From Candidatus Omnitrophota bacterium (lineage in GTDB: Bacteria; Omnitrophota; Gorgyraeia; 2-01-FULL-45-10): a stretch of 64,000 bases of DNA. This document shows, piece after piece, positions 16,848 to 58,600 of the stretch (position 1 is the first letter of the stretch; each line of letters begins with the position of its first letter). Under the pieces are notes generated by a model that ran no database searches, was not told the origin of the DNA, and saw nothing but the letters and a program-made list of their open reading frames with translations. The stretch lies in the NCBI GenBank assembly GCA_041650805.1, contig JBAZKM010000004.1, forward strand, positions 41,636-105,635. Reading direction: 5' to 3'. The translations under genes were made by a program, and so were the position numbers.

Positions 16848-18371
16848 ATGAAAAACGACCATAGCATCTCAGGATACACGCCGGCGCTTCTTGCCATCGG
16901 CATAGTTGCCGTGACCGCCGTTATTTACCACAGTGCGCTATGCGCGGGATTCGTGAACTGGGACGACTCCGTCTACGTCATCAACAACAAGCTGGTCCGC
17001 TCGCTCGCGCCCTCCAATATAGCCCGCATGTGGACCTCCTTTAACGGGGGCTTCTATATACCTCTCGTATGGCTTACGTATGCTGTGACGTACCATTTCT
17101 GGGGGCTCGATCCGCGGATGTACCATCTCGTCAATGTCGCCTTTCACTGCGCGAACGCGGCCCTCGTCTTTATCCTGTTCCGGCGGCTTCTGGCCGTCTC
17201 CGGGCATCGCGACGGATCGGCCCTGCCTGGCCGGGGGACCGGCCTCGCCATCGCGGGCCTTGCCGCGGTCCTCTGGAGTATCCACCCGCTCCGCGTTGAG
17301 AGTGTCGCGTGGGTCACGGAAATGAAGGATGTGGGATGTACCTTCTTCTTTCTATTGAGCCTGCTCGCCTATGTAAGGTACGCGGCCGCCCCGGCGCGCA
17401 ATATGGTATTCGGCGGCATGTCGCTCCTATTCTTCATGCTCTCGCTGCTGTATAAACAGACGGTCATCCTGCTCCCCCTCGTCATGCTCTGCCTCGATAA
17501 ATGGCCGCTCGGAAGGCTCGGACGGATCAAGGATGTCGCAGGTCTCCTCAGGGAAAAGGCGCCTTTCTTCATACTCTCGATCGTGTCCGGGGTCATGCTC
17601 TATGTGGCCCATTCAACCGTGGTGGGTATAACGCCGATAAAGGATATCCCTCTCTCCTTCAGGGTCATGAACGCCTTCCACTCCGCCTTCTTCTATCTGG
17701 CCAAGACCTTCCTGCCCGTAGGGCTATTCCCGCTCTACCCGATACTGCGCCCCCACGAGACCGCCTTCTCTTTCGAGAACGTACTGTCGTGCATCCTCGT
17801 CATCCTCATCTCGGCCGCATCTTTCATATGGGGCAGGGGCAGAAGGTCGTATATCCCGGTGGCATGGCTCATATACCTCTTCACCCTGGTCCCCTCCATA
17901 GGGATAGTGCAGTCGGGCCGCCAGGCGGCGGCAGACCGTTTTTCATACATCCCGGCCATGAGCATCACGTTCCTGGTGAGCGCTGCCATCATCTCATTCC
18001 CGTCGCTATTTAAACGCCGTATCCATGCGCGGATAGCCCGCGCGGCGGTGATCGCAATGATCCCCATCCTGCTTATCACGCTCGGCATCTTGACGGTGAA
18101 CCAGATATCGATCTGGAAGGACCCCATATCTCTGTGGAAACATGCCGCGCGGGGATATCCTGTCGATTCGTCGTTGATACACGGGAACCTGGCGGAGGCG
18201 TATATGGAGGCGGGTGAAACAGATAAGGCGATCGCGGAATACCGCATTGCGATATCGATAGATCCAAAGGAGGCAAAATTCCACCTGGGCCTCCTCAACG
18301 CTCTCCATAAGGCAAACAGACAGGATGAGGCCATGGCGGAACTGATGCAGGCCCTCTCATCGGGGAAATAG
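16848..18371 (+). CDS. TMTC/PMT-like GT-C membrane glycosyltransferase (DUF1736) with C-terminal TPR
   Basis: Multi-pass N-terminal domain (YHSALCAGFVNWDDSVYVINN) typical of bacterial TMTC-like proteins. TPR repeats at the C-terminus. Confidence 0.55.
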   Translation: MKNDHSISGYTPALLAIGIVAVTAVIYHSALCAGFVNWDDSVYVINNKLVRSLAPSNIARMWTSFNGGFYIPLVWLTYAVTYHFWGLDPRMYHLVNVAFHCANAALVFILFRRLLAVSGHRDGSALPGRGTGLAIAGLAAVLWSIHPLRVESVAWVTEMKDVGCTFFFLLSLLAYVRYAAAPARNMVFGGMSLLFFMLSLLYKQTVILLPLVMLCLDKWPLGRLGRIKDVAGLLREKAPFFILSIVSGVMLYVAHSTVVGITPIKDIPLSFRVMNAFHSAFFYLAKTFLPVGLFPLYPILRPHETAFSFENVLSCILVILISAASFIWGRGRRSYIPVAWLIYLFTLVPSIGIVQSGRQAAADRFSYIPAMSITFLVSAAIISFPSLFKRRIHARIARAAVIAMIPILLITLGILTVNQISIWKDPISLWKHAARGYPVDSSLIHGNLAEAYMEAGETDKAIAEYRIAISIDPKEAKFHLGLLNALHKANRQDEAMAELMQALSSGK

Positions 18372-18382
18372 AAGAGACGTTT

Positions 18383-18467
18383 TCCGATCTTATCGGGAAA
18401 CTGTCTGTCGAAACAGCCGGCTAAACAGTCGACGGGTACACCTTCCCGAAGAAAACGGAAAACGTCT
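18383..18467. terminator. long imperfect palindrome between convergent genes (possible bidirectional terminator)
   Basis: AGAGACGTTTTCCG (18383-18396) pairs perfectly with CGGAAAACGTCTCT (18454-18467). Inner pair ATCGGGAA/TTCCCGA. Confidence 0.35.
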
Positions 18468-18492
18468 CTAAGGACTTATCTGATTAAATATG

Positions 18493-19128
18493 CTATGAGA
18501 TTCTCTTTTTTCTTCTTGCCATTGCCATTGCTGCGGCACCAATACCGAATAGCACCATAGTGGCCGGCTCCGGGACAACTCCGGATGGATTTCCATAAGC
18601 CCTATACGCAAAGTCAAGATTATCGTTATCCGAATATGTGCCATAATTAGTAATTAAGGCTTCATCCGGTATCGGGTTTATTGGGTTTCTATCCATCGCG
18701 CCCGTATAAGTATCTCCTGTTCTTACTTCGAAAGCAACCCAATAATTACCGGCCGGCAACGCCCAATTTACGCCGCTTACACCATACCAGCCTGTAGCTG
18801 CTCCAACTAAAAAGTTCTGGTCATATAATTGGCTATTGACGTCTGGGATGATCCCTGAATAAATTCCATCACCATAAATTGCCAGGGTCGCTGTCCCGCT
18901 CACTTGAAGGTGTCTCCATCTTTGGTCTGTAAAGTGAGCTTCGATGTTAGTGAGCGAATAAGGGTCAGACAATGTAAACCTGGCGGCGTATCCTAAGCCG
19001 TTTTCCATATAACCATAGACTGCCGCATCGGGAGGGGTCCCCGTATCAAATATTACTGCCCCATAAGCCTGGCTCGAAATTAACAACATGGTAGCAAGCA
19101 GCGTATTTAATATTATTTTTATTCTCAT
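18493..19128 (-). CDS. PEP-CTERM sorting-domain secreted protein
   Basis: Signal peptide MRIKIILNTLLATMLLISSQAYG. C-terminal VPEPATMVLFGIGAAAMAMARRKKRIS (PEP motif + TM + basic tail). RBS AAGGGGG upstream of the chosen ATG. Confidence 0.7.
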   Translation of the reverse strand: MRIKIILNTLLATMLLISSQAYGAVIFDTGTPPDAAVYGYMENGLGYAARFTLSDPYSLTNIEAHFTDQRWRHLQVSGTATLAIYGDGIYSGIIPDVNSQLYDQNFLVGAATGWYGVSGVNWALPAGNYWVAFEVRTGDTYTGAMDRNPINPIPDEALITNYGTYSDNDNLDFAYRAYGNPSGVVPEPATMVLFGIGAAAMAMARRKKRIS

Positions 19129-19396
19129 CCCTACCCCCTTTTTATGATTGTTTCGATACCGCCATAACTGCCTTATATCATACAATCTAAATACAATATC
19201 TATACAAGCAATAACCGTGCCGATATCAGATACCTTCGTAATTGTTTAAAATGAGATTGGAAAGATGATAGGTATGCCATACTATGACGAGTATGGTGTT
19301 TAAGCGGCTATACACGTGACTAAAATCAGGGCTTGTATAAAAAGCTCGATGGGTCCACCAGGCAGCAGGGCACATTTAAGGATTGTGCCAATTTAC

Positions 19397-19717
19397 TCAA
19401 ACTTTTCGAGGGGACAGGTCTGGGATGCCATCCGGAACCGGTCTGGGATTGGTACGAGAACCGTCCCCGAAAACCGTGGATAAGTATATTCGGCCATCTG
19501 ACAAATGCCCAGTGTCTAATACACTAACGATATTGGCGTGTTCAGCGGCCTTGAGAATTTGTGCTTCATAAAAGAAATTTTTCTGATTAACAATTTTATC
19601 TTTGGGAATAAACTTAACCGCACATTCTGTATTTAATCCAGTGTCTATAGCCAACCAAACCTCTCCAAAATGACCAGAACCCAATTTTTCCTTTAATTCA
19701 AATTTATCTAGCGTCAT
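19397..19717 (-). pseudogene. truncated Ser/Thr protein kinase (N-lobe only)
   Basis: LGSGHFGEVW (Gly loop), AVKFI (beta3 Lys), EAQILK (alphaC Glu), HANIV. Kinase similarity ends after about 90 aa, where the GC content jumps from about 30% to about 60%. The reading frame continues into unrelated sequence. Confidence 0.5.
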
Positions 19718-20171
19718 GAAACGTGCTCCATCCGACTAAAATTGCCTCTTGAATACATGTATCTATTTCAGCAAAGTCTTGGAAAACAGAATAGTCTAAA
19801 TCTGTTTTTAAAGATTGAGTCCTTCCTTTTAATCCCAAATCTTTTGCTATAGTGCAATTAACCTTTTTATAGACTTTAATTCCTTTAATTGCCGCTGCCA
19901 ATTGAATTATGGCCTCATTTTCTGTACGTATTACAAAGGGGCTACCTCTACTTGCCATACCCTCCGTTCCCTTTATCGCTATAGCATCTATTTTATTTTT
20001 TTCTAGAATATCTGTTATTTCTTGAGAAAACCATTTAAGTTCTTGAGGCCTTGTGTAATTCTTGGGAAAGAGTATTCGATTGTGTTGTAAGAGTTTTGGA
20101 GATTTTTTGCTACCATCCAATATAGCAAAACAATAATCTTTCGTGCTACATCTTATTCCCAAAATAATCAT
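19704..20171 (-). CDS. small RNase-H-like-fold protein (possibly DUF3010-like)
   Basis: MIILGIRCSTKDYCFAILDG N-terminus resembles RuvC/YqgF-type beta-strand-1. AT-rich codon usage. Overlaps the kinase start by 14 nt. Confidence 0.3.
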   Translation of the reverse strand: MIILGIRCSTKDYCFAILDGSKKSPKLLQHNRILFPKNYTRPQELKWFSQEITDILEKNKIDAIAIKGTEGMASRGSPFVIRTENEAIIQLAAAIKGIKVYKKVNCTIAKDLGLKGRTQSLKTDLDYSVFQDFAEIDTCIQEAILVGWSTFHDAR

Positions 20172-20283
20172 TATATTTAGCGCCTTATTGTGAAACTGCC
20201 ATTTTGATCACATATTTTTCGTACGGGCAAACATACTATAAAATATAAGGTACTAGTGTTTGTTTCGTAATAATAGATTATAA

Positions 20284-23151
20284 CTAGTAAATGATTTTAT
20301 AATTAAATTTCAGCCAATCACTAATTTCTTTATTAATAAGTGGCATAACATGATCGATTAATCCCAGCTTTCTTTTTAGCAAGTCGCTGAACTTTTTTGT
20401 TACGCTTCGCGGATCTCTATCTGTTGTTACAACTTTTAAAATAATTTCTAAATATTTTCGTCTCATACCAGGGTCTGGTAGTTCGAGTATTATCAGTTTC
20501 ATAAAATCGGTTAAAACATTAAGTTGTGAATCTAGGGTGGTTTCTTTGGATTGCAGTATGTCAATAAATGCGTTAAAATCATTGGACGCTTGAAAACTAT
20601 TTTTTTCTGCACAGTATAATAGCATCTGGGCTGAGATTGAAAGATAATAATACTTTAGGCCTGCTAATTTAATTACCGCATCATAATATTCAGATTCACT
20701 CAGTAGCTTTTTTTGTACAAGCATAGTTAGAAAATTTTGTATGCTAAAGCTGTCTATTTTATAATCATTAAATAATAATTCTTTGAATAAAAGATCATCA
20801 CAAAATAACGGCAGTCTCTTCTCTTTGCATGTTTGTATAGAATAAATGTAGGGTCTCCCCAAAAGCTGTTCTTTAGTTTCTAGGTCTTTTTCTAATAGCT
20901 TATCTAGGCCAATTATATTAAAAGTATTTGCTGCAGCATCTTTGATTTTTTGTAGAAAGTCTATTTTATTTTTGCTACCTTCTGCAGAAAAATTTTGCCT
21001 ATAGGCTTTCCCCTCATGATAAAAGACCGACATTCCTTCACTATCCCCAAATCCTGTTTCATCGGCTATGCTCATATCTATTTCATCTATTGTCGCTCTG
21101 GTGACATAAACCTTATCAAAGTATTTTGTCGGCAATGTTAACATGTCTAAATACGCTAAAGTAAATAAAGAGAGCGGATCCAATAACACCTCTTTAGATT
21201 TATTAATTAATTCCTGTTCTTTTATTTGTTCTACGGCGCTTCCAGAGGCACAAAATAATCTATTGCCCATTGCAATTAAACCAGCCCAGGCAGTAAATAA
21301 ACTAATATTCATAAATTTAGACAATGCGCCTATTGTTAACTTTTTAGATAAATACATTTGGGTTATCTGTGATGCGTATTCCGATTTCCTCTTTACCATT
21401 TCTAGTACTTTTTCAGGATTCGCTTCAATTTTCTGTATTGTTTTATTGCTGGGGAAATATGTATTAAAATTGTTTAGTATACTTTGGAATAATTTTACAT
21501 ATTTACTTTTTATTCCCAAAATTTCAACTACCTCATCTCGCCCGCCTTCTATCTTAATCGTTATTTTATCGCCAATTTTTTTTCCATAAATCGCTTTGCC
21601 TAAATTTGATTCTTTATAGATTTCTGCCCTAACTAATGATGCCCCAGGATCATCTAATAATAAAAACTCGCTTTCTTGACCATCTTTTCTTAATCTTATA
21701 TAAAAATCTTCTTTAACAAATTCTGATTCTAAAATAAGATCGCCTGTTTTCTTGCCTTTTTTGAGAAATAAAAATAAGTATAAAAGCTGTGTCTCAGCAT
21801 CGCTATCAGCAAGGGCTACTACCTTATACGCTTGCTTAATTGCTTCTTCTGTATAATTAGTCCGTGCCAAGAATTTTGTTAGTAAAAGAAGGGTGTCTTT
21901 ATCATTAATACGGTTTTTGATCTCTAAGAGTGATTTTATCTGATGTTCTTTATCGCTCCCCCCGATGTCGTTGACCATTGCTGTGTAATTAATCTTATGC
22001 CTGTAATTTTGTGGTTCTATTTTTACCAATCTTAAATATAGATCCCTAGCTTTATCTAATGAGCCTAATTGTTGGTAAATCGCTGCTTGTAATTCTAACA
22101 CGAATGGGATATCGCCTTGTTTAGCTATTAGATTTTTACATACTTCTAAACATTTTTGTATGTTTTCCGCTCTGTTTTCTTTTGATTCGTATAGACATAT
22201 TAAATAATCTTTTATAAAATCGTCAAATAAAGATTCTGAAACTATAACTTCATATAGCGGTATTGCAGCATCATATGAGCCGATCTTTTTATAATGTTTG
22301 GCCAAATGTATTATTGCAATATTTTTTTCTGGTCCTGTAGCAGTTTTCATCACTTCCGTTATTAGTGATTTAAAAGCCTCTGTTTCTCCTTTAGCCCTTT
22401 TTATCTCTGCATCTAATAGTAGTATTTTTGGGTCTTTACCAAATTTGCTATATAGTTGCTTTAAAATACTGCTTGCTTCATCATAATCTTTTTTTGATAC
22501 GTAGGTTTCTGCTAATAACAAATTGGGTACAATATTTAAACTGAGAAGCTCTTCTTTATAATATTGTTTAATTGCAGCAATTGCTTCCTCAGCTCTCGGC
22601 TCTGGTTGATCTACATACGATGATACTAGGGTTGGCATTATGTCATCTTTACTAGCGCCCCCATCTAAAGCTTTCTTAAAATCTACTATTGCTTCATCTT
22701 GGTTTTTAGTTAATACATTTATTTTTGCTTTATTTGCATATGCAAGAGGGTTTTTAGGATCAATTTCCAATACGGCATTTATGTCGTTAATAGCAAGATC
22801 AAACTTATCTAATATGGCTCTAACGCTAGATCTGTTTATGTAGGCATCTTCTAGTAGGGTCTTTTTATCAGTTGTTTTTAACAAATTGATGGCTTGTGTT
22901 AATAATCGTTCCGATTCTTCTAAGTCTTTTATATTTTCTGAGGATAGACCAAAGCGCCAAGCTCGGCCTTTCATAATAAATTGCAGTAAATGCGAGCCAT
23001 ATGTTAAATAAATTTCTGGTATGTCCTTCGCCGTCTCTAACGCTTTCTGGAAATATTCCTTTGCTTTTACAATTTCGTCTTTTTTTGCATAGGCAAGAGC
23101 AATATTTAGCAAAGCGTTTTTATCTTTTTTAAATCTATCTTTAATTTCCAT
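20284..23151 (-). CDS. large TPR-repeat protein (955 aa) with uncharacterised C-terminal half, low-GC
   Basis: More than 10 TPR-like repeats in the N-terminal about 480 aa. The C-terminal half has a possible PIN-like segment (VLLDPLSLFTLAYLDMLTL...VYVTRATIDEI). GC about 30%. Confidence 0.55.
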   Translation of the reverse strand: MEIKDRFKKDKNALLNIALAYAKKDEIVKAKEYFQKALETAKDIPEIYLTYGSHLLQFIMKGRAWRFGLSSENIKDLEESERLLTQAINLLKTTDKKTLLEDAYINRSSVRAILDKFDLAINDINAVLEIDPKNPLAYANKAKINVLTKNQDEAIVDFKKALDGGASKDDIMPTLVSSYVDQPEPRAEEAIAAIKQYYKEELLSLNIVPNLLLAETYVSKKDYDEASSILKQLYSKFGKDPKILLLDAEIKRAKGETEAFKSLITEVMKTATGPEKNIAIIHLAKHYKKIGSYDAAIPLYEVIVSESLFDDFIKDYLICLYESKENRAENIQKCLEVCKNLIAKQGDIPFVLELQAAIYQQLGSLDKARDLYLRLVKIEPQNYRHKINYTAMVNDIGGSDKEHQIKSLLEIKNRINDKDTLLLLTKFLARTNYTEEAIKQAYKVVALADSDAETQLLYLFLFLKKGKKTGDLILESEFVKEDFYIRLRKDGQESEFLLLDDPGASLVRAEIYKESNLGKAIYGKKIGDKITIKIEGGRDEVVEILGIKSKYVKLFQSILNNFNTYFPSNKTIQKIEANPEKVLEMVKRKSEYASQITQMYLSKKLTIGALSKFMNISLFTAWAGLIAMGNRLFCASGSAVEQIKEQELINKSKEVLLDPLSLFTLAYLDMLTLPTKYFDKVYVTRATIDEIDMSIADETGFGDSEGMSVFYHEGKAYRQNFSAEGSKNKIDFLQKIKDAAANTFNIIGLDKLLEKDLETKEQLLGRPYIYSIQTCKEKRLPLFCDDLLFKELLFNDYKIDSFSIQNFLTMLVQKKLLSESEYYDAVIKLAGLKYYYLSISAQMLLYCAEKNSFQASNDFNAFIDILQSKETTLDSQLNVLTDFMKLIILELPDPGMRRKYLEIILKVVTTDRDPRSVTKKFSDLLKRKLGLIDHVMPLINKEISDWLKFNYKIIY

Positions 23152-23154
23152 TTT

Positions 23155-24147
23155 CTAACCCTCTTTACGATATAACGTCATCGCTTCTTCTGTCTTATCA
23201 GCAGCCATTAGTAATTCGAATTTTATATTAATTGCTTCGTTATCATTTGGATCCATTATTATAGCTGCATCTATATATGGTAGACCATCCAAAGGCTTGT
23301 CCTCAAATAAACATGCCAATGCTCTATTCTTACAAGCAATAAGTGAGGGTGGAGATATAAAATCATATGCAATTTTAAACATTTTCGACGCTTCTGCTTC
23401 ATCTCCTAATACTACATAACATACGCCAAGATTATTATAAACCTTGAATTTTGCAATCATTGGTACTTTAAGGTCTTTTTTAAAATCATTTATTAATTTT
23501 TCGTATATTATTTTTGCGCTTTCATGCTTGGCGTTATCCATTAAAACTTTGGCGTTATCGATTTCGGTTTTATACTTACACCCCTCTAGCGAATCGATGT
23601 CACTAACTTTGGCAGGTAAAATATTGGATCGAGATGTGCTTATAGATTGTTCATAAGTTAATTCTGTCGATGGTTTCTTTTCGAGCGTTTTTGCTATATT
23701 AGTTCGAACCTCTATCATCATTTTGTTAGTAGCTTCCATTGTTTGAGAAACAGAAAGAGGCACATGCTCTGCTTTGGGTAATTCTTCCGTAAAAATTTCT
23801 ATAAACCTAGCGCTTATTAACCCTATGTCTCGTTGCTTAAGATTAGTGCATTCCCCACATTTTTCGTTCAAACCTTTAGATATAGCGTCTTGCGCTATTT
23901 GAGGATTTATCTTGTAGTTTTGACCGATTACGGCGATAAGCTCTTTATTATTACTAAGCGTTTCCCATAAAATGATATCAATTCGTCCACTTTTTAATTC
24001 ATTAGAAACTCTTCGTGCAGATATAATAACTGCTTTTAGTATAGGCTCTTTTCTGAACAAAGAGAGGAGCTTTTCAACGGCCTTTTCTCCAAAAACCGTT
24101 GTTATTAACTCTGCTCCCTTTATACATATCTGGAATAATATTTCCAT
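23155..24147 (-). CDS. hypothetical protein with C-terminal TPR repeats, low-GC
   Basis: 330 aa. 4-nt gap to the downstream TPR gene (likely operon). No recognised N-terminal domain. Confidence 0.45.
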   Translation of the reverse strand: MEILFQICIKGAELITTVFGEKAVEKLLSLFRKEPILKAVIISARRVSNELKSGRIDIILWETLSNNKELIAVIGQNYKINPQIAQDAISKGLNEKCGECTNLKQRDIGLISARFIEIFTEELPKAEHVPLSVSQTMEATNKMMIEVRTNIAKTLEKKPSTELTYEQSISTSRSNILPAKVSDIDSLEGCKYKTEIDNAKVLMDNAKHESAKIIYEKLINDFKKDLKVPMIAKFKVYNNLGVCYVVLGDEAEASKMFKIAYDFISPPSLIACKNRALACLFEDKPLDGLPYIDAAIIMDPNDNEAINIKFELLMAADKTEEAMTLYRKEG

Positions 24148-24170
24148 ATAGCAGATTAATCCTATAATAA

Positions 24171-24203
24171 AAAAGCGTTAGAATTAATTCTAACGCCTTA
24201 ACA
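24171..24203 (-). terminator. rho-independent terminator downstream of tRNA-Asp
   Basis: Minus strand GGCGTTAGAAT-T-AATTCTAACGC hairpin followed by TTTTTTAT. Confidence 0.45.
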
Positions 24204-24445
24204 TTCTTAATGTTATGTAATTGCTCTTGATCTCATAACCAACCCTTTGTTGTCTGATATTATAGCAGTATCGAGATATTACTACAAGGATTAGGTTAGA
24301 GCGACAGTTGGCTTCAGTAGAGTAGTTTGACTATTATACTTACGATGAGCGAGGCAAGACACTACGTTGTGACAGGATTGTGACATAAAAAAACTCGCCC
24401 TAAGTATAGAATTAGAGCGAGTCCGCCACTTACTCGACGATAAAC

Positions 24446-24522
24446 TGGCGGGGACGACGGGGATCGAACCCGCGACCTTCAGATCGACAATCTGACGTTC
24501 TAACCAGCTGAACTACGTCCCC
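24446..24522 (-). tRNA. tRNA-Asp (anticodon GTC)
   Basis: 77 nt. GGGGACGTAGTTCAGCTGGTTAGAACG...anticodon loop TTGTCGA...CGGGTTCGATCCCCGTCGTCCCCGCCA. Perfect 7-bp acceptor stem. Close to E. coli tRNA-Asp. Confidence 0.85.
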
Positions 24523-26444: not shown

Positions 26445-26561
26445 ATAAACTAATCTCTCTTTTGTGGCCCGCCTTCGCAATCAACTGTCAAACGAATCGG
26501 TGCTTCGGCGGGCTCATCCGCCGAAGCCTTCTGTCGTCTGCCTGTTGTTGGCGAAGGCGGA
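26445..26561 (-). repeat. 117-nt conserved structured element immediately 3' of tRNA-Val (copy A)
   Basis: Near-identical to 55246-55362 apart from 2-3 substitutions in the first 20 nt and a few at the distal end. Outer stem CCGCCTTCG/CGAAGGCGG; inner hairpin GGCTTCGGCGG-ATGAGC-CCGCCGAAGC. Confidence 0.6.
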
Positions 26562-26637
26562 TGGTGGGCGGAACAGGGCTCGAACCTGTGACCTCTTGAA
26601 TGTAAGTCAAGCGTTCTACCAGCTGAACTATCCGCCC
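26562..26637 (-). tRNA. tRNA-Val (anticodon TAC)
   Basis: 76 nt. GGGCGGATAGTTCAGCTGGTAGAACGCTTGACTTACATTCAAGAGGTCACAGGTTCGAGCCCTGTTCCGCCCACCA. Confidence 0.85.
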
Positions 26638-27934: not shown

Positions 27935-28842
27935 CCGGTCCTCAGCTTTCCGACAATGCCTTTTACATTCTCTATCCCGTGTTCTTTCATGTACTCTTCG
28001 ATACCTCTCGCTGTGGCTGCCGCTGCGCCCGGATCCACAAAATTGGCGGTACCCACCTGGATGGCCGCTGCGCCCGCGAGCATGAACTCGAGCGCATCTT
28101 TATGGTCCATGATCCCGCCCATCCCTATTACGGGGATGCGGACCTTATTATAAACGGTCCAGACCATGCGAAGCGCGAGCGGCTTTATCGCCGGGCCGCT
28201 CAAACCGCCCGTGACATTTCCCAGCACCGGTCTTTGTGCCTCTATATCAACGGCCATTCCCAGAAACGTGTTCACGAGGGAGACCGCGTCCGCGCCCGCT
28301 TCCTCGGCGGCCTTCGCTATCCTGGAGATATCGGTCACGTTGGGGGATAGTTTTGCTATGACGGTAAGGCCTGTCGCGCGCCGGACCGCCTTGACCGTCT
28401 CGTACGTACCTTTCTCGTCCTGGGCTATCAGACGGTCCTTACCGCCGTACCGTATATTCGGGCAGGAGAGGTTCAGTTCGAGCGCTGCGGCTTTAGTGCC
28501 GACGGCCTTTGCCAGCTCCTTGAACTCGTCTTCATCATCCCCCGCGATACTTGCTATCACCGGGGTCCCGAACTTTTTAAGGGACGGGAGCGTCTTCTTA
28601 AGGAATATATCTACACCTTTATTCTCGAGCCCGATCGAATTTAGCATACCGGAAGGCGTCTCTATGACACGGGGCGGCGGGTTGCCTATCCTGGGGCGCA
28701 GGGTGACCGTCTTGGCCACGATAGCGCCCAACGACCGGATGTCGGTCAGTTCTCCGTACCCGTCCCCGAACGTCCCCGACGCCGCCATGACGGGGTTCTT
28801 CAGTTTCAGCTTTCCTATCTTTACGCTCAGATCCGGCTTCAC
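27931..28842 (-). CDS. pyrD: dihydroorotate dehydrogenase, class 1B catalytic subunit
   Basis: NPVMAASGTFG...SIGLENKG...GGI motifs. Confidence 0.85.
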   Translation of the reverse strand: MKPDLSVKIGKLKLKNPVMAASGTFGDGYGELTDIRSLGAIVAKTVTLRPRIGNPPPRVIETPSGMLNSIGLENKGVDIFLKKTLPSLKKFGTPVIASIAGDDEDEFKELAKAVGTKAAALELNLSCPNIRYGGKDRLIAQDEKGTYETVKAVRRATGLTVIAKLSPNVTDISRIAKAAEEAGADAVSLVNTFLGMAVDIEAQRPVLGNVTGGLSGPAIKPLALRMVWTVYNKVRIPVIGMGGIMDHKDALEFMLAGAAAIQVGTANFVDPGAAAATARGIEEYMKEHGIENVKGIVGKLRTG

Positions 28843-29687
28843 CAGATTATCTCCTTTGCGTTAAATACCGGCCCGTCCTTACAGACCATCTTGTATTCGT
28901 ATTGGGTATTGGGTATAGGGTATCGGGTATCGGGTTTGGTAAATTGCGATCTGACTTTTACCGGACAGCCGAGGCAGACTCCCACGCCGCAGGCCATCTT
29001 CTCTTCGAGCGAGACCTGGCAATCGGCGTTATGCGCCGCGGCGATCTTAGCTACCGCTTTCAACATTGCGTTAGGACCGCAAGCGTATACGGTCCATGGT
29101 CCATGGTCGACGGTCGACAGTAAAGACCCTAAGATTTCAGTGATGAATCCTTTGCACCCTTCGCTCCCGTCTTCCGTTGAAACTAATGTTTCTATGCCAA
29201 GTTCTTTAAACTCTTTTTTGCAAATTAACTGTTTTTTTGTTTTTGCGCCTATTAAGGCGTATATTTTTTTACCGTGGGCCGTGGACTGTGGACTGTGGAC
29301 TAATTTTTCTGCCAGCGCAACGAGCGGCGCGACCCCCATGCCGCCGGCGACGAGTACAACTGTGGACCGTGGACTGTGGACTGTGGACTTAATGTCGAAC
29401 CCTTTCCCCAGCGGCCCGATCACGTCGAGAAGCTCTCCCGGTTTACGCCTAGCCAATATCTCCGTGCCCTTGCCCACGACCTCATATAATATCTCGATCC
29501 CGCCCCTTATTATCCTGTGTACGCTGAAAGGCCTGCGAAGCAGCGGATCGACAGCGTCGGAAGGGCGCACCTCTATAAATTGGCCCGGTGCCGTCGCGCG
29601 CGCAAGATACGGCGCCCCGAGCCGCATCTTGTAGTACCGCGGCCCTGCCTTCCTGTTCTCCAGTATCTTCGCGCTAAGTTGTCTCAT
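28839..29687 (-). CDS. pyrK: dihydroorotate dehydrogenase electron-transfer subunit, carrying in-frame heptamer-repeat insertions
   Basis: FAD/NAD-binding ferredoxin-reductase fold and C-terminal Cys cluster (CGVGVCLGC). Contains the repeat-encoded peptides HSPRSTV, HSPQSTA, VDHGPWTV and PDTRYPIPNTQY. Confidence 0.8.
   Translation of the reverse strand: MRQLSAKILENRKAGPRYYKMRLGAPYLARATAPGQFIEVRPSDAVDPLLRRPFSVHRIIRGGIEILYEVVGKGTEILARRKPGELLDVIGPLGKGFDIKSTVHSPRSTVVLVAGGMGVAPLVALAEKLVHSPQSTAHGKKIYALIGAKTKKQLICKKEFKELGIETLVSTEDGSEGCKGFITEILGSLLSTVDHGPWTVYACGPNAMLKAVAKIAAAHNADCQVSLEEKMACGVGVCLGCPVKVRSQFTKPDTRYPIPNTQYEYKMVCKDGPVFNAKEIIW
28893..28938. repeat. heptamer tandem array (GTATNGG) x5 to x6, in-frame inside pyrK
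   Basis: gtattcg tattggg tattggg tataggg tatcggg tatcggg. On the pyrK strand this encodes KPDTRYPIPNTQYEYK. Confidence 0.7.
29274..29389. repeat. two heptamer arrays (GTGGACT/GTGGACC) inside pyrK (29274-29301 and 29360-29389), plus a related (GGTCCAT) array at 29091-29118
   Basis: Direct reading gives gtgggcc gtggact gtggact gtggact. Each array is a multiple of 21 nt in-frame, encoding 7-aa units (V)HSP(R/Q)ST(V/A). Confidence 0.7.
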
Positions 29688-33895: not shown

Positions 33896-34558
33896 TCAGA
33901 TGATGACCACGAACTCTCCCTTTGGCTCTTTTGACCCAAAGTGTTCTATTGCGGCGCTCACTTTACCCCTGATAAGTTCTTCGAATTTCTTGGTCAACTC
34001 CCTGGCCAGCACTATCTCGACATCGCCGTAGACCTCGAGTATATCGGCCAGGAGCCTGGCGATCCTGTGCGGCGACTCGTAGAGGATGACGGTCCTCCCT
34101 TCGCTCTGTAATCTGGCCAGCTGGTTCTTCCTCTTTATGGGTTTATTTGACAGGAACCCTTCGAACGTGAACGCGTTGGTCGGTTTACCCGATATCGTAA
34201 GGGCCGCCACAAGGCCTGAAGGGCCGGGTATGGGCACGACCGGGATATTCTCCCCTATAGCCAGTCGTATTATGCTGTAACCGGGGTCCGAAATGCCGGG
34301 CGTGCCGGCATCAGAGACGAGGGCGACGGACTTCCCCTCTTTCAATAACCCTATGATATAGTCGGCCTTCCGCACCTTATTGTATTCGAAGTAGCTCGTG
34401 GTGGGGGTCTTTATCTGGTACCTCTCCAGCAATATCCTGGTGTGGCGGGTGTCTTCGGCGGCTATCATGTAGACCGACTTCAACGTCTCGATCGCCCGGA
34501 GCGTGATATCCCCGAGATTACCGATAGGAGTAGCGACGATGTATAACGTACCGGGCAT
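33896..34558 (-). CDS. rsmI: 16S rRNA (cytidine1402-2'-O)-methyltransferase
   Basis: Tetrapyrrole-methylase fold. LYIVATPIGNLGDIT...AAEDTR. Confidence 0.8.
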   Translation of the reverse strand: MPGTLYIVATPIGNLGDITLRAIETLKSVYMIAAEDTRHTRILLERYQIKTPTTSYFEYNKVRKADYIIGLLKEGKSVALVSDAGTPGISDPGYSIIRLAIGENIPVVPIPGPSGLVAALTISGKPTNAFTFEGFLSNKPIKRKNQLARLQSEGRTVILYESPHRIARLLADILEVYGDVEIVLARELTKKFEELIRGKVSAAIEHFGSKEPKGEFVVII

Positions 34559-34561
34559 AGT

Positions 34562-34633
34562 TAGTTAGGGGTTTGGGGTTAGGAGCTTGGAGTGTTGGGA
34601 ATTCTTCTCCCAACCCCATACTCCTAACTCCCG
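34562..34633. repeat. heptamer-based palindromic (REP-like) intergenic element
   Basis: gttaggg gtttggg gttagga gcttgga ...tgggaattcttctccca... then the inverted arm tcccaac cccatac tcctaac tcccgac. Lies between rsmI and glmS. Confidence 0.5.
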
Positions 34634-38572: not shown

Positions 38573-38634
38573 GCTTTCAAACAATTTCAAATTACCAATG
38601 TCAAATTAATTGGATATTTGTAATTTGTCATTGG

Positions 38635-41109
<2,475 letters not shown>

Positions 41110-41133
41110 TTTTCTCCTCGTTATAGAACCGTT

Positions 41134-41205
41134 GGTCCATAGTCGATAGTCCATGGTCCATAGTAAAAACTTTGGCCGTCGACTGTGGACCGTGGACTGT
41201 TGACC
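41134..41205. repeat. heptamer-based palindromic REP-like element in the gyrB-gyrA intergenic region
   Basis: ggtccat agtcgat agtccat ggtccat ag ...loop... gtcgact gtggacc gtggact gttgacc (imperfect inverted arms). Confidence 0.5.
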
Positions 41206-45334: not shown

Positions 45335-46711
45335 TCAACTTTTAATATTTTTAATAAGCTTGTCGGTTATATCCCTTAAACCCTCTTTTGACTTAAGGTC
45401 GTTCTCTATCTTTTCACAGGCGTGTATAACGGTCGTGTGGTCCCTGCCCCCGAAGTTCTCACCTATCTCAGGTAAAGAGTAATCGGTCAGTTTGCGCGTG
45501 AGGTACATCGCGATCTGGCGCGGGTAAGCGACCGCCTTACTCCTGTTCTTCGCCTTCATGACAGAAAGTTTTATGTCGAAATATTCGCTCACCTTCTTCT
45601 GGATGAGCTCGATGGTGATCTTCTTCTCCCCCTCCACTATCATATCTTTCAGCACCTCCCTGGCAAGGTCCAGGGAGACATCCCTTCCTATGAGCTTGGA
45701 ATAAGCGACTACGCGTATAAGCGCGCCTTCCAGTTCCCTGATATTCGTCTTTATCTTCTCTCCCAGGAAGTAGAAAACGTCGTCGGGGAGCGCGATCGTC
45801 TCTTTTTCGGACTTCTTTTTCAGTATGGCGATCCTCGTCTCAAAATCGGGCGGCTGTATATCGGTGACGAGTCCCCACTCGAACCGCGATACGAGCCGGT
45901 CCTCGAGGTTCTGGATCTCTTTCGGCGGCCGGTCGCTGGAGACGACGATCTGCTTATGGGCGTCGAAAAGGGCGTTGAACGTGTGGAAGAACTCTTCCTG
46001 CGTCGACTCCTTGCCGGCGATGAACTGGATATCGTCTATCAGAAGGATGTCCACGTACCTGTACTTCTCCCGGAATTTCTGGGTGGTCCTGTTCTGGATG
46101 GCGCCTATGAGCTGGTTCGTGAACTCCTCGCTCGATATGTAGAGGATCTTCGTCTTGGGGAACTTCTGGACGGCGCTCTGCCCTATGGCGTGCATCAGGT
46201 GCGTTTTGCCCAATCCTACACCGCCGTATATGAAGAGCGGGTTGTACGCCTTTGCGGGGGATTCGCAGACGGCCATCGACGCGGCATGGGCGAACCGGTT
46301 GCTTGACCCGACGACGAAGCTCTCGAACGTATACTTGGGGTTGAGGCCTATCTCTTTCGGCGAGTCCGGGTTCTGGCGCGCGAACGGCCAGAACGGCTTC
46401 TCTTTCTTCGGCTCTTTTTTACGCGCGGGGTCTTCCCGCAGGGCCTCTTCGTCGCCCATCTCCTTGAGAGCGAATTCTACGCCGAGCTCTTTGCCGACGG
46501 CCTTTGCTATGCACGAACGTATCACATCCATGTACCGCTCGAGAAGCCAGCTCTTGAAGAACTTATTCGGGACTTCCAAAGTTATCGTGTCGGCGTTTAT
46601 GGATGAGCACCGTATCGGGCCGAACCAGATATCGAACGTCCGGTCGTTAGCGAGCTCCTTTTTGATCATCTCCCGGGCCTTGACCCATACGGCTCCGCCG
46701 TCAATCGCCAT
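45335..46711 (-). CDS. dnaA: chromosomal replication initiator protein
   Basis: Walker A GGVGLGKTHL, AAA+ boxes, C-terminal DnaA-box binding HTH (RDHTTVIHACEKI). Confidence 0.9.
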   Translation of the reverse strand: MAIDGGAVWVKAREMIKKELANDRTFDIWFGPIRCSSINADTITLEVPNKFFKSWLLERYMDVIRSCIAKAVGKELGVEFALKEMGDEEALREDPARKKEPKKEKPFWPFARQNPDSPKEIGLNPKYTFESFVVGSSNRFAHAASMAVCESPAKAYNPLFIYGGVGLGKTHLMHAIGQSAVQKFPKTKILYISSEEFTNQLIGAIQNRTTQKFREKYRYVDILLIDDIQFIAGKESTQEEFFHTFNALFDAHKQIVVSSDRPPKEIQNLEDRLVSRFEWGLVTDIQPPDFETRIAILKKKSEKETIALPDDVFYFLGEKIKTNIRELEGALIRVVAYSKLIGRDVSLDLAREVLKDMIVEGEKKITIELIQKKVSEYFDIKLSVMKAKNRSKAVAYPRQIAMYLTRKLTDYSLPEIGENFGGRDHTTVIHACEKIENDLKSKEGLRDITDKLIKNIKS

Positions 46712-46966
46712 AATATAGGACCTTACTTTGAGTTATCCACAACCCAATAACAACTTTTCAACACGAAAAAGGGGTTATCCACAAGTTACAAACAAGCATC
46801 GCAGCCGCGACGTTCAGTTATTATAGTAGATTATATAAAGTAGTGCAAGAGAAAAATGAGCCCGCCATTAAATGTATTGACTCAATTATTCTTTATGATA
46901 TAATTTAGCACACGCAATTTTGCTTTCGGGGGAAGACCGTCAGCTTAAAACAGGAAAGGGATGACC
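46712..46966. promoter_or_regulatory. oriC-like region with DnaA boxes
   Basis: Perfect TTATCCACA at 46733-46741 and 46775-46783, plus an AT-rich stretch at 46815-46860. Variant boxes TTATCAACA also occur in the dnaA-dnaN spacer (about 45215-45320). Confidence 0.55.
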
Positions 46967-47104
46967 ATGAAGTATACGCTAAGGGCGAAATCGAACCTCA
47001 GGAGAAAGAGAAAGCACGGGTTCAGGAAGAGGATGAAGGACCGCTGGGGCAGGGCCGTTCTGAAGAGGAGACGACAGAAAGGCCGGCACAAGCTCACCGT
47101 ATGA
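46967..47104 (+). CDS. rpmH: 50S ribosomal protein L34
   Basis: [45 protein letters not shown]. The ORF has no stop-free run long enough to appear in the ORF track. Confidence 0.85.
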
Positions 47105-51139: not shown

Positions 51140-51637
51140 ATGGACCAACAGACGCTTGTATTGATAAAACCGGACGGTCTTAAGAAATCGCTCACCGGCA
51201 ATGTCCTGACCAGGTTATCCGAGACGAAGCTCGATATCGTGGCTGCCAAGATAGTCAAAGTATCGCGCGAGCTCGCCGAGCAGCACTATATATCGCTGAA
51301 AGATAAGCCGTTCTTCGAAGAGCTTCTGAAATATCTCATGGGGGAGTACCATAAGAAGAAGGTCATGGCGCTCGTATACTGGGGGGAGGATGCGATAAAG
51401 AAGGTCAGGACCATCTGCGGCGCGACAAACCCGGAAGAGGCGGATCCCGTCTCCATCAGGGGCGCATACGGCAGGATCACCACGAAGGGTGTCTACGAAA
51501 ACGTCATACACGCCTCGACGAATGACCAGGAATCGGAGCGCGAGATAAAGTTGTGGTTCCAGCCCGACGAGATCATCCTCGACCTCTACCCGACCAAGAC
51601 CGTAAAGACATCGGCCCAGCGGAGAGTGTGGGCGTAA
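51140..51637 (+). CDS. ndk: nucleoside diphosphate kinase
   Basis: LVLIKPDG..., NVIHAS (NxxHxSD-like) active-site region. Confidence 0.75.
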   Translation: MDQQTLVLIKPDGLKKSLTGNVLTRLSETKLDIVAAKIVKVSRELAEQHYISLKDKPFFEELLKYLMGEYHKKKVMALVYWGEDAIKKVRTICGATNPEEADPVSIRGAYGRITTKGVYENVIHASTNDQESEREIKLWFQPDEIILDLYPTKTVKTSAQRRVWA

Positions 51638-51642
51638 AAAGC

Positions 51643-51715
51643 GGTCCACAGTCGACTGTCCATGGTCGACCGTATAAAGCATTTACTGTGGACCATCGAC
51701 TATGGACCGTGGACT
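51643..51715. repeat. heptamer-based palindromic REP-like element between ndk and yicC
   Basis: ggtccac agtcgac tgtccat ggtcgac c ...loop... ctgtggacc atcgact atggacc gtggact (inverted arms). Confidence 0.5.
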
Positions 51716-55168: not shown

Positions 55169-55245
55169 GGACGCGTAGCTCAGTTGGTTAGAGTGCTTCC
55201 TTGACATGGAAGAGGTCACAGGTTCGACCCCTGTCGCGTCCACCA
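55169..55245 (+). tRNA. tRNA-Val (anticodon GAC)
   Basis: GGACGCGTAGCTCAGTTGGTTAGAGTGCTTCCTTGACATGGAAGAGGTCACAGGTTCGACCCCTGTCGCGTCCACCA. Confidence 0.85.
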
Positions 55246-55362
55246 TCCGCCTTCGTCGACAACAGGCAGACGACAGAAGGCTTCGGCGGATGAGCCCGCC
55301 GAAGCACCGATTCGTTTGACAGTTGATTGCGAAGGCGGGCCACAAAAGAGAGATAAGTTCAT
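55246..55362 (+). repeat. 117-nt conserved structured element immediately 3' of tRNA-Val (copy B)
   Basis: Near-identical reverse complement of 26445-26561. Same position relative to a tRNA-Val 3' end, and the same nested stems. Confidence 0.6.
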
Positions 55363-55620: not shown

Positions 55621-58600
55621 ATGTCAGACGCTAGATCTGGTAGTACTCCTAATGTGATCTTGAATAGACGCCCATTCAGGGTGACGATCGCCATTGTCAC
55701 CCTGTGGGCGTTTTTACTTAATATTGTAGCATACGATCTGGCCTGGGCTGCCGGAACGCCTACAGAGCTTACTAGCGTCGGCCCTGATAGAGCCGGCGGC
55801 CCGGGCGTTGTGAAGGAACTGGACGCTTCGACATTTTCATTACCCCAGTATCTCGGTTCTATCCGCGACTCCTGGTCCCCTAAACCCTATACCCTATACC
55901 CTATACCCAATACTATAATCCACATCCAAGACGCCCACTGCAACTATTATGCCCAGCACAAGATAAAAGAGATAATAGAGTATCTGAATAGAGAATACGG
56001 CGTAGATACCGTAAATCTCGAGGGTGGGGCGATGGGTTACGACCTGTCCCCGTTTACGGATATACGCGACAAAGATATCCGCGAAAAGGCGACCGACCAT
56101 TTCGTGAAAGAGGGTTTGGTGAACGGCGCAGAGTACTTCGCCATCAACAACCCGGAGAAGATAGCGCTTTGGGGGGTAGAGGATGCCCGGCTCTATGTCG
56201 ATAACCTCAATGTCTACAGGAGTTCAGCCGTCCGCAAGGCCGAGATCGAGAAGCATATTAAATCGCTCAACCACATCATCAACAACTTAAAACCGAAGAT
56301 ATATTCGAAAGAGCTTCTCGAGTTCGACCTGGCATATTCCTCATACAAGGCGCACAATTCGGAATTCAAAGATTACCTGTCATACCTCATAACGAAAGCA
56401 AAAGAGAGGGCCATCAACGTAAAACAATTTACAAATATCTACATCCTAAGCCGGACGCTCGGCGAGGAGGGGAAGGTCGATTTTAAAAGAGCGAATATCG
56501 AACGCGACGTTATGATAGATGCGCTCGGGAAACGGCTTTCGAAAAGCGCTCTCGAGGAACTTGTGGTGAAGACGGTTGAATTCAAGGCGGAGAGGATATC
56601 GCAAAAGGAATTTTACGCGTACCTCACAGGTAAGGCGAAAGTCGCCGGCTTGGACATGGACGGCTTCCCCGAACTCCGCAGGTATATTATCTATATCTCT
56701 ATGTACGAAGCGGTCGATAAGCCGAGCGTCATGGAAGAGATAGATGCCCTGGAAGCGAAGCTTCTGGAAGGCCTATATCGGAACGAGGAAGAGAGGACCT
56801 TAAGCCGTCTTTCGAAGAACCTGGCGTTATCGAAGAACATATTCGACATCTCGCTTACCAGGGACGATTACCGTTACTACAAGAAGAACGAGGCGTCGTT
56901 CGATATGCGTAACTACGCCGTGTTCATCGAGCGGGAAGCGCCTGCGCGCGGTATCACGGCAAAGCTCGACAACGATATAGCCCACCTCGACAACTATAGG
57001 CGGGAGATGGCGAAGTTCTACGAGTATTCATTCAAGCGCGATGAGGCGTTCATACGGAATATTAAGTTAGGGGGTATAGGGTATAGGGTATCGGGTATAG
57101 TAACCCGAAAACCAGGGGCCGCGATCCTCGTGACCGGTGGGTTCCATTCCGAGAACCTCGCAGAACTATTCAAGAAGAACGATATCGCCTACGTATCGAT
57201 CATGCCGAACTTCAGATCCGGCGACGAGTATGAGTGCCCGTACTTCAAGATCCTTTCAGGCGAGAAGAATATCAGGATAAAAGAGTCATTACCGGCGGTC
57301 CTCACCGGCATGCTCCCGGTACCGGATCAGCTGAATCCGGCGGTGATGAGAGAGCTCGAAAAAACCCAAAAACCGTTGGGCGCGGGAAGGATGAGGATGC
57401 AGGGGGAGCATGCATTTACACAGTTTTTGACGCGCATAGAACCGCTCCTTCTTATGTCTGAGGCCCTGTTGCCCATAATAATAGACAGGGCCATACAAAG
57501 ATATGAGAGGACGAAAGAGCCGCAGGTTATCAATATAGGGATCGTGGGGGCAGGATATGGCCAGGAACCCGTATCCGTGGCGATCGCCCTTGATAGAAAG
57601 ATAAGAAGTATGCTTGAGGACCGGCGTCTTCCCGGGGATTCTGTGAAGCTTGCAGTCCATATCATGAGCAGGCCGTCCCCCATGCTCGATAAGCTTAGAG
57701 ATAATGGAATAAGGTATCCGGCAGATTCGATCGCGCGACAGATCGCTCTCGGCAATATCTCAGAGACCGAACGGGACAGGTATTTTGAAGATACGGGAAC
57801 AGGGTCAAGGCGCACCCAGGCCCTGAACGATATCATGAAGTTTTATGAAGTCGATCTTTTGGACGATCCGCAGGCAGAGGTGCCGCCTCTCGATGCGCTA
57901 TTGGTCCACAATATCCTGCAGTATCTGATGCCGGGTGATATGCAAAGTGCGCAAGCGGCATTCGGATATCTGGGTTCAATGGTAAAGCCGGGCGGGATCA
58001 TTTCAGTCACGTCCCCGGAAGGAACCGCCGACAGATACGTTAAGGCAGCGTATGATGAGATGTTTAGCGGCCGCGGCGGATATGAGCAAGCGAAATTTGA
58101 AGGGTTACCCGTAGAGACAGTATTTTTTGTGAAGAAGACACCGCCCGCGCCGCAGGCCGGGTTCGGTCGCCTTGAGGTGATCTCAGGCGTAGCGGTGCTG
58201 ACGGCAGCGGCAGCGACTTTCCACGCCGCAGGCATCGCCGCGGCGCTCGTTGTCGGGATCGCCGGCGCGCTCGCAGCAGCGCTCTTATTCAGGTATCTCA
58301 ACCGGGCAACGTCGGAAGAAAAGACGGCCACACCGACACCTCATGAGGCCATGATAAGAGAATTATGGGGAAGCGTTCCGCGACCGATCGGTGATGCGGA
58401 ATTGCGAAAAGCCATCATAGAAAGATCTTTTTCTGGTGAAGCAGCCATGCGATGGGGTGCTGACACGTTGTCGGACCTTATCGATTTTAATAAATCGAGG
58501 GCAGGGACGCTATATATTACGGCTATCATAGAAGCCAGTTTACCCAAGTTAGGGATAATGATACCGGACAATTTTATGTACGGCCCTGCAATGACACCGG

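Follow-up and report, generated by a model that had tools for sequence, protein, structure and literature searches.

What are the palindromic elements, built from tandem heptanucleotides, that occupy several gene spacers of an Omnitrophota chromosome, and how did they come to be there? The question is raised by a 64,000-nt stretch of the genome of a Candidatus Omnitrophota bacterium (GenBank assembly GCA_041650805.1, contig JBAZKM010000004.1, positions 41,636 to 105,635 of the forward strand; hereafter the window), in which a first-pass annotation had pointed to three such palindromes, between rsmI and glmS, gyrB and gyrA, and ndk and yicC, and had taken them for elements resembling the repetitive extragenic palindromic (REP) type, probably acting as stabilising hairpins or as terminators of the transcripts. 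In the explanation that we favour and hold to be rather probable, they are made of short tandem heptanucleotide modules, typically four units plus 3 nt (about 31 nt), akin to the short tandemly repeated repetitive (STRR) sequences or long simple sequence repeats (LSSR) of cyanobacteria. Two inverted modules form a hairpin of 60-80 nt, and the four intergenic hairpins found in the window are lineage-specific insertions into gene junctions. By alignments and a structure model, single modules also occupy surface loops of conserved proteins, where they keep the reading frame and would add 7-10 residues when read through.

Inverted heptamer arrays in gene spacers

The three palindromes lie where the first-pass annotation had placed them, and their arms are indeed heptamer arrays facing an imperfect reverse complement, with four tandem heptamers plus 3 nt, that is 31 nt, in each arm of hairpins 1-3. 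The names given to the neighbouring genes are also right by their Pfam labels, TP_methylase corresponding to RsmI and GATase with SIS to GlmS, while GyrB stands beside GyrA and NDK beside YicC. Further copies exist in the window, namely a fourth hairpin, absent from the earlier annotation and recovered by Tandem Repeats Finder (TRF) and a period scan, and six arrays within open reading frames (ORFs), which are described below. The four hairpins are:

34562-34633, hairpin 1, in the 79-nt spacer between the glmS stop and the rsmI start: G-rich arm GTTAGGG GTTTGGG GTTAGGA GCTTGGA (GGGKTWR-type) and its C-rich complement
41134-41205, hairpin 2, in the 113-nt spacer between the gyrB stop and the gyrA start: two 31-nt RGTCSAY arms, loop AAAGTTTTT (sense strand)
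51643-51715, hairpin 3, in the 101-nt spacer between the ndk stop and the yicC start: two 31-nt RGTCSAY arms, loop region CGTATAAAGCATTT
38582-38640, hairpin 4, in the 62-nt spacer between the gyrA stop and tRNA-Glu: AT-rich ATTKGTM family

The left arm of hairpin 2 reads GGTCCAT AGTCGAT AGTCCAT GGTCCAT AGT, its right arm being the imperfect reverse complement, and that of hairpin 3 reads GGTCCAC AGTCGAC TGTCCAT GGTCGAC CGT, followed by the loop and the complement. The spacers at the glmS-rsmI, gyrB-gyrA and gyrA-tRNA-Glu junctions are almost wholly hairpin sequence, and hairpin 1 adjoins the rsmI ATG at 34558. Only tRNAs reach the Rfam gathering score in the window and nothing matches the hairpins at E up to 1, nor did a BLAST search of hairpin 3 against a plasmid collection give a match.

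Heptamer arrays can mislead the calling of start codons, as in gyrA, whose longest ORF begins at an ATG within hairpin 2 (41152-41154). The true start codon lies at 41109 (ATG), has GAGGAG upstream of it and matches the N-terminus MYARNEKV common to the closest homologues.

The same junctions in syntenic relatives

The window was compared with four syntenic loci of relatives (L206-L209), in which GyrA is 84-86% identical to that of the window. The gyrB-gyrA spacer measures 10-38 nt in the four loci as against 113 nt in the window, the glmS-rsmI junction ranges from –4 to 31 nt as against 79 nt, and the gyrA-tRNA-Glu spacer is 3-9 nt long in L206-L208 as against 62 nt; in L209 the latter spacer is a different 63-nt stretch with heptamer-like periodicity. 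The glmS-rsmI junction of L208 retains only ‘CCCTAAACCCAAAATAC’, which may have seeded the C-rich arm of hairpin 1. Since the genes nearly abut at these junctions in the relatives, the hairpins represent recent lineage-specific insertions and not conserved regulatory structures. The insertions are also datable, since the same junctions are empty in the syntenic loci.

Folding and possible roles in the transcript

RNA fold energies were computed for both strands and compared with those of dinucleotide shuffles. The arms pair when folded as RNA, as the first-pass annotation had led one to expect, and hairpins 1-3 reach –30 to –41 kcal/mol on either strand with z-scores of –3.2 to –6.4. In detail, the energies are –35.8 kcal/mol on the sense (–) strand and –41.0 on the + strand for hairpin 1 (z –4.4 and –4.7), –30.0 sense and –40.7 antisense for hairpin 2 (z –3.2 and –6.4), –35.1 sense (z –4.7) and –36.9 antisense for hairpin 3, and –13.9 sense versus –14.5 antisense for hairpin 4 (z about –3.1). 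The antisense fold is thus at least as stable as the mRNA-sense fold in all four hairpins, the largest gap (10.7 kcal/mol) being that of site 2; G-U pairs on one strand are A-C mismatches on the other. A sense fold that is weaker than, or equal to, the antisense one is the opposite of what selection on an mRNA hairpin would be expected to produce.

This result bears on the idea that the hairpins are selected intercistronic RNA elements, serving in exonuclease protection, as RNase III or RNase E sites, in setting the gyrB:gyrA or ndk:yicC ratio, or in antisense termination. Very stable folds speak for it, as do the location of all four hairpins between co-directional genes, the Shine-Dalgarno (SD)-like ACGAGG that hairpin 3 places ahead of yicC, and the T-runs that follow hairpins 2, 3 and 4 on the antisense strand, although only site 3 is antisense terminator-like. 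The location, however, carries no weight, since 48 of the 55 junctions in the window are co-directional; a positional bias to such junctions was considered and set aside as not significant. The hairpins are, moreover, absent at the same junctions in the four relatives, so that together with the strand comparison the evidence makes such selection unlikely in our judgement.

The suggestion that the palindromes are terminators is not supported: in none of the four hairpins does a U-tract follow the stem 3' on the transcribed strand, and they are therefore not canonical terminators, besides which three of them stand between cistrons that nearly abut in the relatives. Stabilisation of the transcript, the other role that had been put forward, is possible. 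On account of their absence from the relatives and of a sense fold not stronger than the antisense fold, the hairpins are probably tolerated insertions with an incidental effect on the operon mRNA.

Hairpins 2 and 3 and their flanking repeats

In gene orientation, an alignment of hairpins 2 and 3 over 113 columns shows 84% identity, which extends to the loop (AAAG..TTTACT) and the 3' tail (AACG..TATWACGAGG). The exact 10-mer TATWACGAGG is found in the window only at these two sites, which are copies of one element. It is on this relationship and on the empty junctions that one part of the REP-like assignment can be kept, i.e. that the palindromes are inserted and dispersed. Both hairpins are bracketed by direct repeats (+ strand coordinates):

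41103-41114, right copy at hairpin 2: CGTACATTTTTC, holding the gyrA start codon
41206-41217, left copy at hairpin 2: CGTTCATTTTTC
51631-51638, left copy at hairpin 3: GGCGTAAA, 8 nt, holding the ndk stop codon
51732-51739, right copy at hairpin 3: GGCGTAAA, running into the yicC ATG

The repeat at hairpin 2, CGT[A/T]CATTTTTC, is 12 nt long and 92% identical between its copies (one mismatch), with 8 nt exact and a spacing of 103 nt (41103 and 41206), while the spacing at hairpin 3 is 101 nt. An exact repeat of at least 8 nt in the same geometry occurs at about 4% of random positions. In the flanking repeats one finds the stop codon of the gene upstream or the start codon of the gene downstream, which is the pattern expected if an abutting stop/start junction was duplicated.

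Such repeats could be the 8-12 bp target duplications of a non-autonomous transposon resembling a miniature inverted-repeat transposable element (MITE), with the arms as terminal inverted repeats and a DDE transposase encoded elsewhere, and the nearly equal spacing of 101 and 103 nt, the 84% identity of the two copies and the empty sites in relatives all agree with this. On the other hand, flanking repeats are found at two of the four hairpins, the ends of the element are asymmetric, no transposase is present in the window, and the tail of site 3 resembles a carried-along gyrA leader, suggesting segmental copying; a MITE origin is in our view very unlikely. The sequence concerned, TATAACGAGGAG, is part of the tail of hairpins 2 and 3 and belongs to the native gyrA leader of L208, which has no hairpin there. 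What stands at site 3 may therefore have been copied as a segment from the gyrB-gyrA junction, hairpin and some flank together, and would then not be a transposon with defined ends.

The flanks also bear on the possibility that these are elements of the REP/REPIN type, moved by a REP-associated tyrosine transposase (RAYT) encoded elsewhere in the genome. REP elements carry a conserved GTAG-type 5' tetranucleotide beside an imperfect palindrome of 20-40 nt, and neither their transposition nor that of the IS200/IS605-type by Y1/HUH enzymes is known to make a target duplication. The window has intergenic imperfect palindromes in several copies, two of them clearly related and all inserted relative to the junctions of the relatives, as REP elements would be. 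However, 8-12 nt direct repeats bracket sites 2 and 3, and since flanking duplications are not a REP feature, membership in the REP/RAYT system is unsupported; no flanking GTAG-like tetranucleotide is common to the four hairpins; and the arms are internally tandem-repetitive over 31 nt, with three families alike only in period. The roughly 50 window genes checked by Pfam include neither a Y1 transposase (Y1_Tnp, PF01797) nor any other, in agreement with the first-pass annotation, which had seen no RAYT-like gene in the window, and no insertion sequence (IS) element is present there. We rate the REP/RAYT identity as highly improbable.

Arrays in frame within pyrK and a giant ORF

Six arrays of the hairpin heptamer families are found in frame within ORFs, four of them in a pyrK-like gene (28839-29687, minus strand) and two in a giant ORF:

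29359-29389, minus strand, pyrK array D: (AGTCCAC)x4 + AGT on the mRNA, peptide KSTVHSPRSTV
29272-29301, minus strand, pyrK array C: AGTCCAC x3, GGCCCAC GG, peptide VHSPQSTAHG
29091-29121, minus strand, pyrK array B: same family as C and D in opposite orientation, mRNA ACTGTCG ACCGTCG ACCATGG ACCATGG ACC, peptide LSTVDHGPWT
28899-28935, minus strand, pyrK array A: GGGTATN family, mRNA ACCCGAT ACCCGAT ACCCTAT ACCCAAT ACCCAAT AC, peptide KPDTRYPIPNTQY
55878-55913, plus strand, giant-ORF array 1: CCCTAAA CCCTATA x3 CCCAATA, peptide SPKPYTLYPIPNT, a loop insertion right before the conserved IHIQDAHCNY
57072-57098, plus strand, giant-ORF array 2: GGGTATA GGGTATA GGGTATC GGGTAT, peptide GGIGYRVSGI, preceding the conserved VTGGFH, with four G3 tracts

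When 29 Omnitrophota PyrK proteins are aligned, the arrays are seen at four indel-prone positions between invariant blocks. The AlphaFold2 (AF2) model of the window protein (predicted local distance difference test, pLDDT, 83.8; predicted template modelling score, pTM, 0.86) places the array positions between the main strands and helices, the 10-residue blocks that hold the four arrays having mean pLDDT values of 65, 67, 79 and 55. Array D, for instance, falls in a variable alignment loop that is modelled between strands 86-93 and 109-115 (block mean pLDDT 65). The giant-ORF arrays are likewise, from the alignment with homologues, in-frame insertions of 6-11 residues in variable loops.

The giant ORF itself (55621-64000, + strand) exceeds 2,790 codons and continues beyond the end of the window. 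Proteins homologous to its N-terminal 600 residues are confined to Omnitrophota and almost all lack a Pfam domain. The ORF contains three near-identical hydrophobic segments of the form AGFGxLEVxxGxAVLxAAxAxFHAAGIAAAL...

At the same four loops, PyrK homologues have peptides that are also encoded by heptamers, though from other unit families. In pyrK DNA of relatives (five closer genes and three more distant ones) the families are TAGCGTA, CTTACAG, GTCAGAA, AGCTTTC, ACGATAC, GCTNCAC and others, nearly always in arrays of about 31 nt, and 31 nt is the modal length both among the arms and in-gene arrays of the window and in these eight genes. The number of units varies nonetheless between genomes: site D of the homologue P0012 has about eight units versus four in the others, and array A of the window is 7 residues (21 nt, three units) longer than the array of the same family in L208, a difference that fits a change of length in frame-preserving steps. 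Outside pyrK, L206-L209 are nearly devoid of arrays, as against the 14 arrays in the 64 kb of the window; L206 and L208 each show a single strong array per 22 kb, in both cases within pyrK. In a metagenome scan for pyrK loci the relatives among the matches listed were all at most 53% identical. The use of the same four PyrK loops by arrays of differing heptamer families looks new, as does the lasting complementarity of arrays C and B described below.

Single arms that are translated in frame in pyrK and in the giant ORF, and that belong to the same families as the hairpin arms, cannot be accounted for by the REP-like reading, and solitary in-frame arms at orthologous loops are equally unexplained by a MITE.

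Complementary arrays within genes

The inverted pairing seen in the spacers recurs within genes. Array B of pyrK agrees with the reverse complement of array D at 24 of 31 positions and with that of array C at 22 of 31, against a background of 200 random 31-mers whose best agreement is usually 16-20 and at most 23. The two giant-ORF arrays are inverted partners at a distance of 1.16 kb (29/36 and 25/27), while pyrK array A has no partner within 2.5 kb. Among the pyrK genes with DNA, arrays C and B, which lie about 150 nt apart, are 75-88% complementary in five of six, across three families (GTCCAY, TAGCGKA and GCTNCAC); the exception is L205, at 0.44, and unrelated cross-gene array pairs give 0.32-0.6. 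In L203, array A pairs with an inverted array in the downstream pyrD.

When heptamers were deduced from the peptides of 120 PyrK homologues, which is a noisy procedure, 5 of 37 pairs were complementary at 6 or more of 7 positions versus 1.3 after re-pairing, and 5 of 2000 permutations reached the observed value, a result that is suggestive only, since the kinship of the sequences is not controlled in it. The complementarity of C and B could come from shared ancestry, with intrastrand template switching homogenising the inverted repeats, or else from selection for the helix.

Period-7 excess and unit families

A period scan of the window gave nine arrays of period 7 where 0.2 were expected and eight of period 14 where 0.1 were expected, with none of period 4, 5, 8 or 9, and period-7 rows are also given by TRF. 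Matches to (GTCSAYN)x3 number 12 in the window versus 0.00 expected. The total is 14 arrays in about three families, namely RGTCSAY with seven, GGGTATN-like with five and ATTKGTM with two.

Beyond the window, a scan for (GTCSAYN)x4 in one genome per species returned more than 120 loci in many phyla. In viral contigs, RGTCSAY stretches number 78, permuted units 31, 93 and 51, and stretches of period 8 and period 10 number 24 and 56, respectively. The spread of RGTCSAY across phyla was therefore rejected as evidence of a shared system, permuted units being about as common, and their similar frequency in viral contigs argues for a generic heptamer process and not for a sequence-specific factor. 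The wide distribution shows tandem arrays of any heptamer to be common, but not that this unit is special or inherited from a common ancestor. A preference for four units among the (GTCSAYN)x4 loci was likewise rejected, the counts falling geometrically (108, 23, 6, ...); these counts are uninformative on length, since the loci were selected for at least four units.

The GGGTATN-type arrays and the G-rich arm of hairpin 1, and these only, lend themselves to another explanation, that of regulatory repeats folding as G-quadruplexes (G4). GGGTATC is an instance of GGGNATC, a published class that prefers four units and co-directional ORFs (PMC4692102), and by the sequence criterion four to five G3 tracts, separated by 4-nt loops, are present in the arrays at 28899-28935 and 57072-57098. 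The 4-unit design is shared, however, by the RGTCSAY and ATTKGTM families, which have no G tracts, and in hairpin 1 and the giant-ORF pair a complementary C-rich partner would compete with G4 folding, which leaves quadruplex function scarcely probable as the explanation of the arrays.

Origin and significance of the modules

In the explanation that we prefer, that of tandem heptamer modules related to the cyanobacterial repeats, a module would arise and change its length by slippage in a 7-nt register, only 21-nt (three-unit) steps surviving within genes. Intrastrand template switching or gene conversion would produce the inverted copies or keep them similar, and whole hairpins with some flanking sequence would occasionally be copied into new junctions. 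The modules would be essentially selfish or neutral, tolerated only in spacers and loops; the hairpins would fold in the polycistronic mRNA and be at most incidental stem-loops, which might for instance hinder exonucleases or uncouple translation.

Several observations weigh against this explanation. Slippage by itself leaves unexplained the uniform length of about 31 nt in the non-coding arms, where no frame constraint applies, the appearance of a 4-unit array in an ORF without lethal frameshift intermediates, the presence in PyrK orthologues of arrays of different families at the same four loops, and the fact that C and B have stayed complementary through at least three family states. Hairpins 1 and 4, moreover, have no flanking duplication, and at site 2 the boundaries of the duplication are ambiguous, since TATAACGAGGAG is native in L208. 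The uniform size of four units plus 3 nt in coding and non-coding contexts, the ORF arrays with no viable frameshift intermediates, the recurrence of the four PyrK loops with different families and the joint switching of C and B would instead suit a dedicated copy-paste or conversion process that installs 31-nt modules as units in either orientation, or selection for long-range mRNA helices; we think this quite unlikely.

Heptamer repeats have been known in cyanobacteria for decades, and the window extends their range to Omnitrophota, where the material is unusually clean, with dated insertions, a pair of copies with flanking duplications, and pyrK loops in which the sequence changes while size and pairing stay constant. 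Slippage and an active installing or converting process can be told apart directly with existing metagenomes. The arrays add peptide loops to conserved enzymes and probably also fragment assemblies.

Other features of the window

GC skew and AT skew switch sign at about 46700-47100, between dnaA (45335-46711, minus strand) and rnpA/yidD/yidC (plus strand), so that the replication origin falls within the window, and genes point away from it in both directions. The PyrK and GyrA of the window are 100% identical to proteins that NCBI assigns to a Candidatus Omnitrophota MAG, and the contig corresponds to ENA ERZ27247363 k141_736944 (203.7 kb). Within the dnaA coding region there is a sub-threshold Rfam match to AsdA, the antisense RNA of the dnaA mRNA (46148-46228, + strand; 35.4 bits versus a gathering score of 52, E 0.00046).

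A sequence of about 105 nt is present in two copies, 97% identical, at 26455-26570 (minus strand) and 55240-55350 (plus strand), each directly 3' of a tRNA-Val gene, the two genes having anticodons tac and gac and lying on opposite sides of the origin. Within this sequence lies a long, imperfect inverted repeat whose 43-nt arms are 74% complementary, and the sequence has no Rfam match at the gathering score. At L207 (12690-12870), the 3' end of tRNA-Glu (GAATCCCCGTGGGGACGCCA) recurs about 150 nt downstream of the gene, resembling the integration of a small element at a tRNA.

The region 18000-24500, which adjoins tRNA-Asp, is an island of low GC (0.33-0.42 versus about 0.54 elsewhere) and was probably acquired horizontally. 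Its genes encode a 955-aa tetratricopeptide repeat (TPR) protein with a PIN-TPR-GreABC domain (PF20698), a 330-aa protein without a Pfam match, a truncated protein-kinase fragment and a PEP-CTERM protein. The convergent spacer between the TPR and PEP-CTERM genes contains an inverted repeat that is not heptamer-based (18373-18469; 32-nt arms, 81% complementary, 33 nt apart) and that may be a bidirectional terminator.

Length variation of GyrA was considered as a further case of heptamer arrays and rejected, as it is due to a lysine-rich C-terminal tail and to inteins. Several Omnitrophota GyrA proteins (P0174, P0199, P0208 and others) reach about 1,300-1,375 aa and carry intein/LAGLIDADG domains (PF14890, PF14528), of which the GyrA of the window has none.

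Comparison with known repeat systems

REP/REPIN elements resemble the window hairpins as multi-copy intergenic imperfect palindromes that possibly stabilise the upstream mRNA. They differ in that the window arms are tandem heptamers, have no conserved GTAG head, are accompanied by target-like duplications, come without a RAYT in the window and also occur as solitary arms in ORFs. A second point of comparison is given by the Rickettsia palindromic elements (RPE), whole palindromes of about 100-150 bp and of one sequence family that stand in frame in protein-coding genes. They share with the window arrays the tolerance of repeat DNA in frame, which adds surface peptide without destroying the protein, whereas an Omnitrophota insert consists of one 31-nt heptamer array, which in some cases has its complementary partner hundreds of nucleotides away.

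Heptamers are reported to be the most abundant class of long simple sequence repeats in prokaryotes and are known from cyanobacteria (STRR), Beggiatoaceae, Bacteroidetes and Xanthomonas, mostly in intergenic regions and sometimes in ORFs at peripheral positions, with 7-nt indels between strains (PMC4679880, PMC4692102). One heptamer class favours four units and a place between co-directional ORFs (PMC4692102). The phylogenetic distribution of these repeats is patchy and neither their origin nor their function is established (PMC4679880). We found no report of such heptamer repeats in Omnitrophota in the literature searched. The G4-forming GGGNATC repeats described from Xanthomonas and Nostoc (Rehm et al. 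2015, PMC4692102) have in common with the window arrays the heptamer unit, the preference for four units and the location between co-directional ORFs near stop and start codons, and among the window units GGGTATC conforms to GGGNATC and GGGTATA nearly so. Most window arrays, however, have no G tracts, the G-rich ones have complementary partners, and some are translated.

The closest likeness is to STRR/LSSR heptamers, a group that takes in the cyanobacterial STRR1-3, the TAACTGA repeats known from Beggiatoaceae, cyanobacteria and Bacteroidetes, and the repeats of Mrazek's LSSR survey. Like these, the window has 7-nt units in head-to-tail order, an excess of period 7, several unit families in one genome, differences in unit number between related genomes (array A relative to L208, and site D of P0012), and a mainly intergenic location with occasional copies at tolerated positions of ORFs. 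The window unit ATTGGTC is a rotation of STRR2 (TTGGTCA), and ACTGTTG is the reverse complement of STRR3 (CAACAGT). Unlike STRR/LSSR, the Omnitrophota arrays are nearly fixed at four units plus 3 nt, are regularly paired in inverted orientation into hairpins, and often stand in frame in housekeeping genes, where they occupy orthologous loops with a family that varies between orthologues. REP/RAYT membership fails on the features that can be checked, namely the flanking duplications, the lack of a conserved head and the build of the arms, and the window arrays show the defining features of the STRR/LSSR heptamers.

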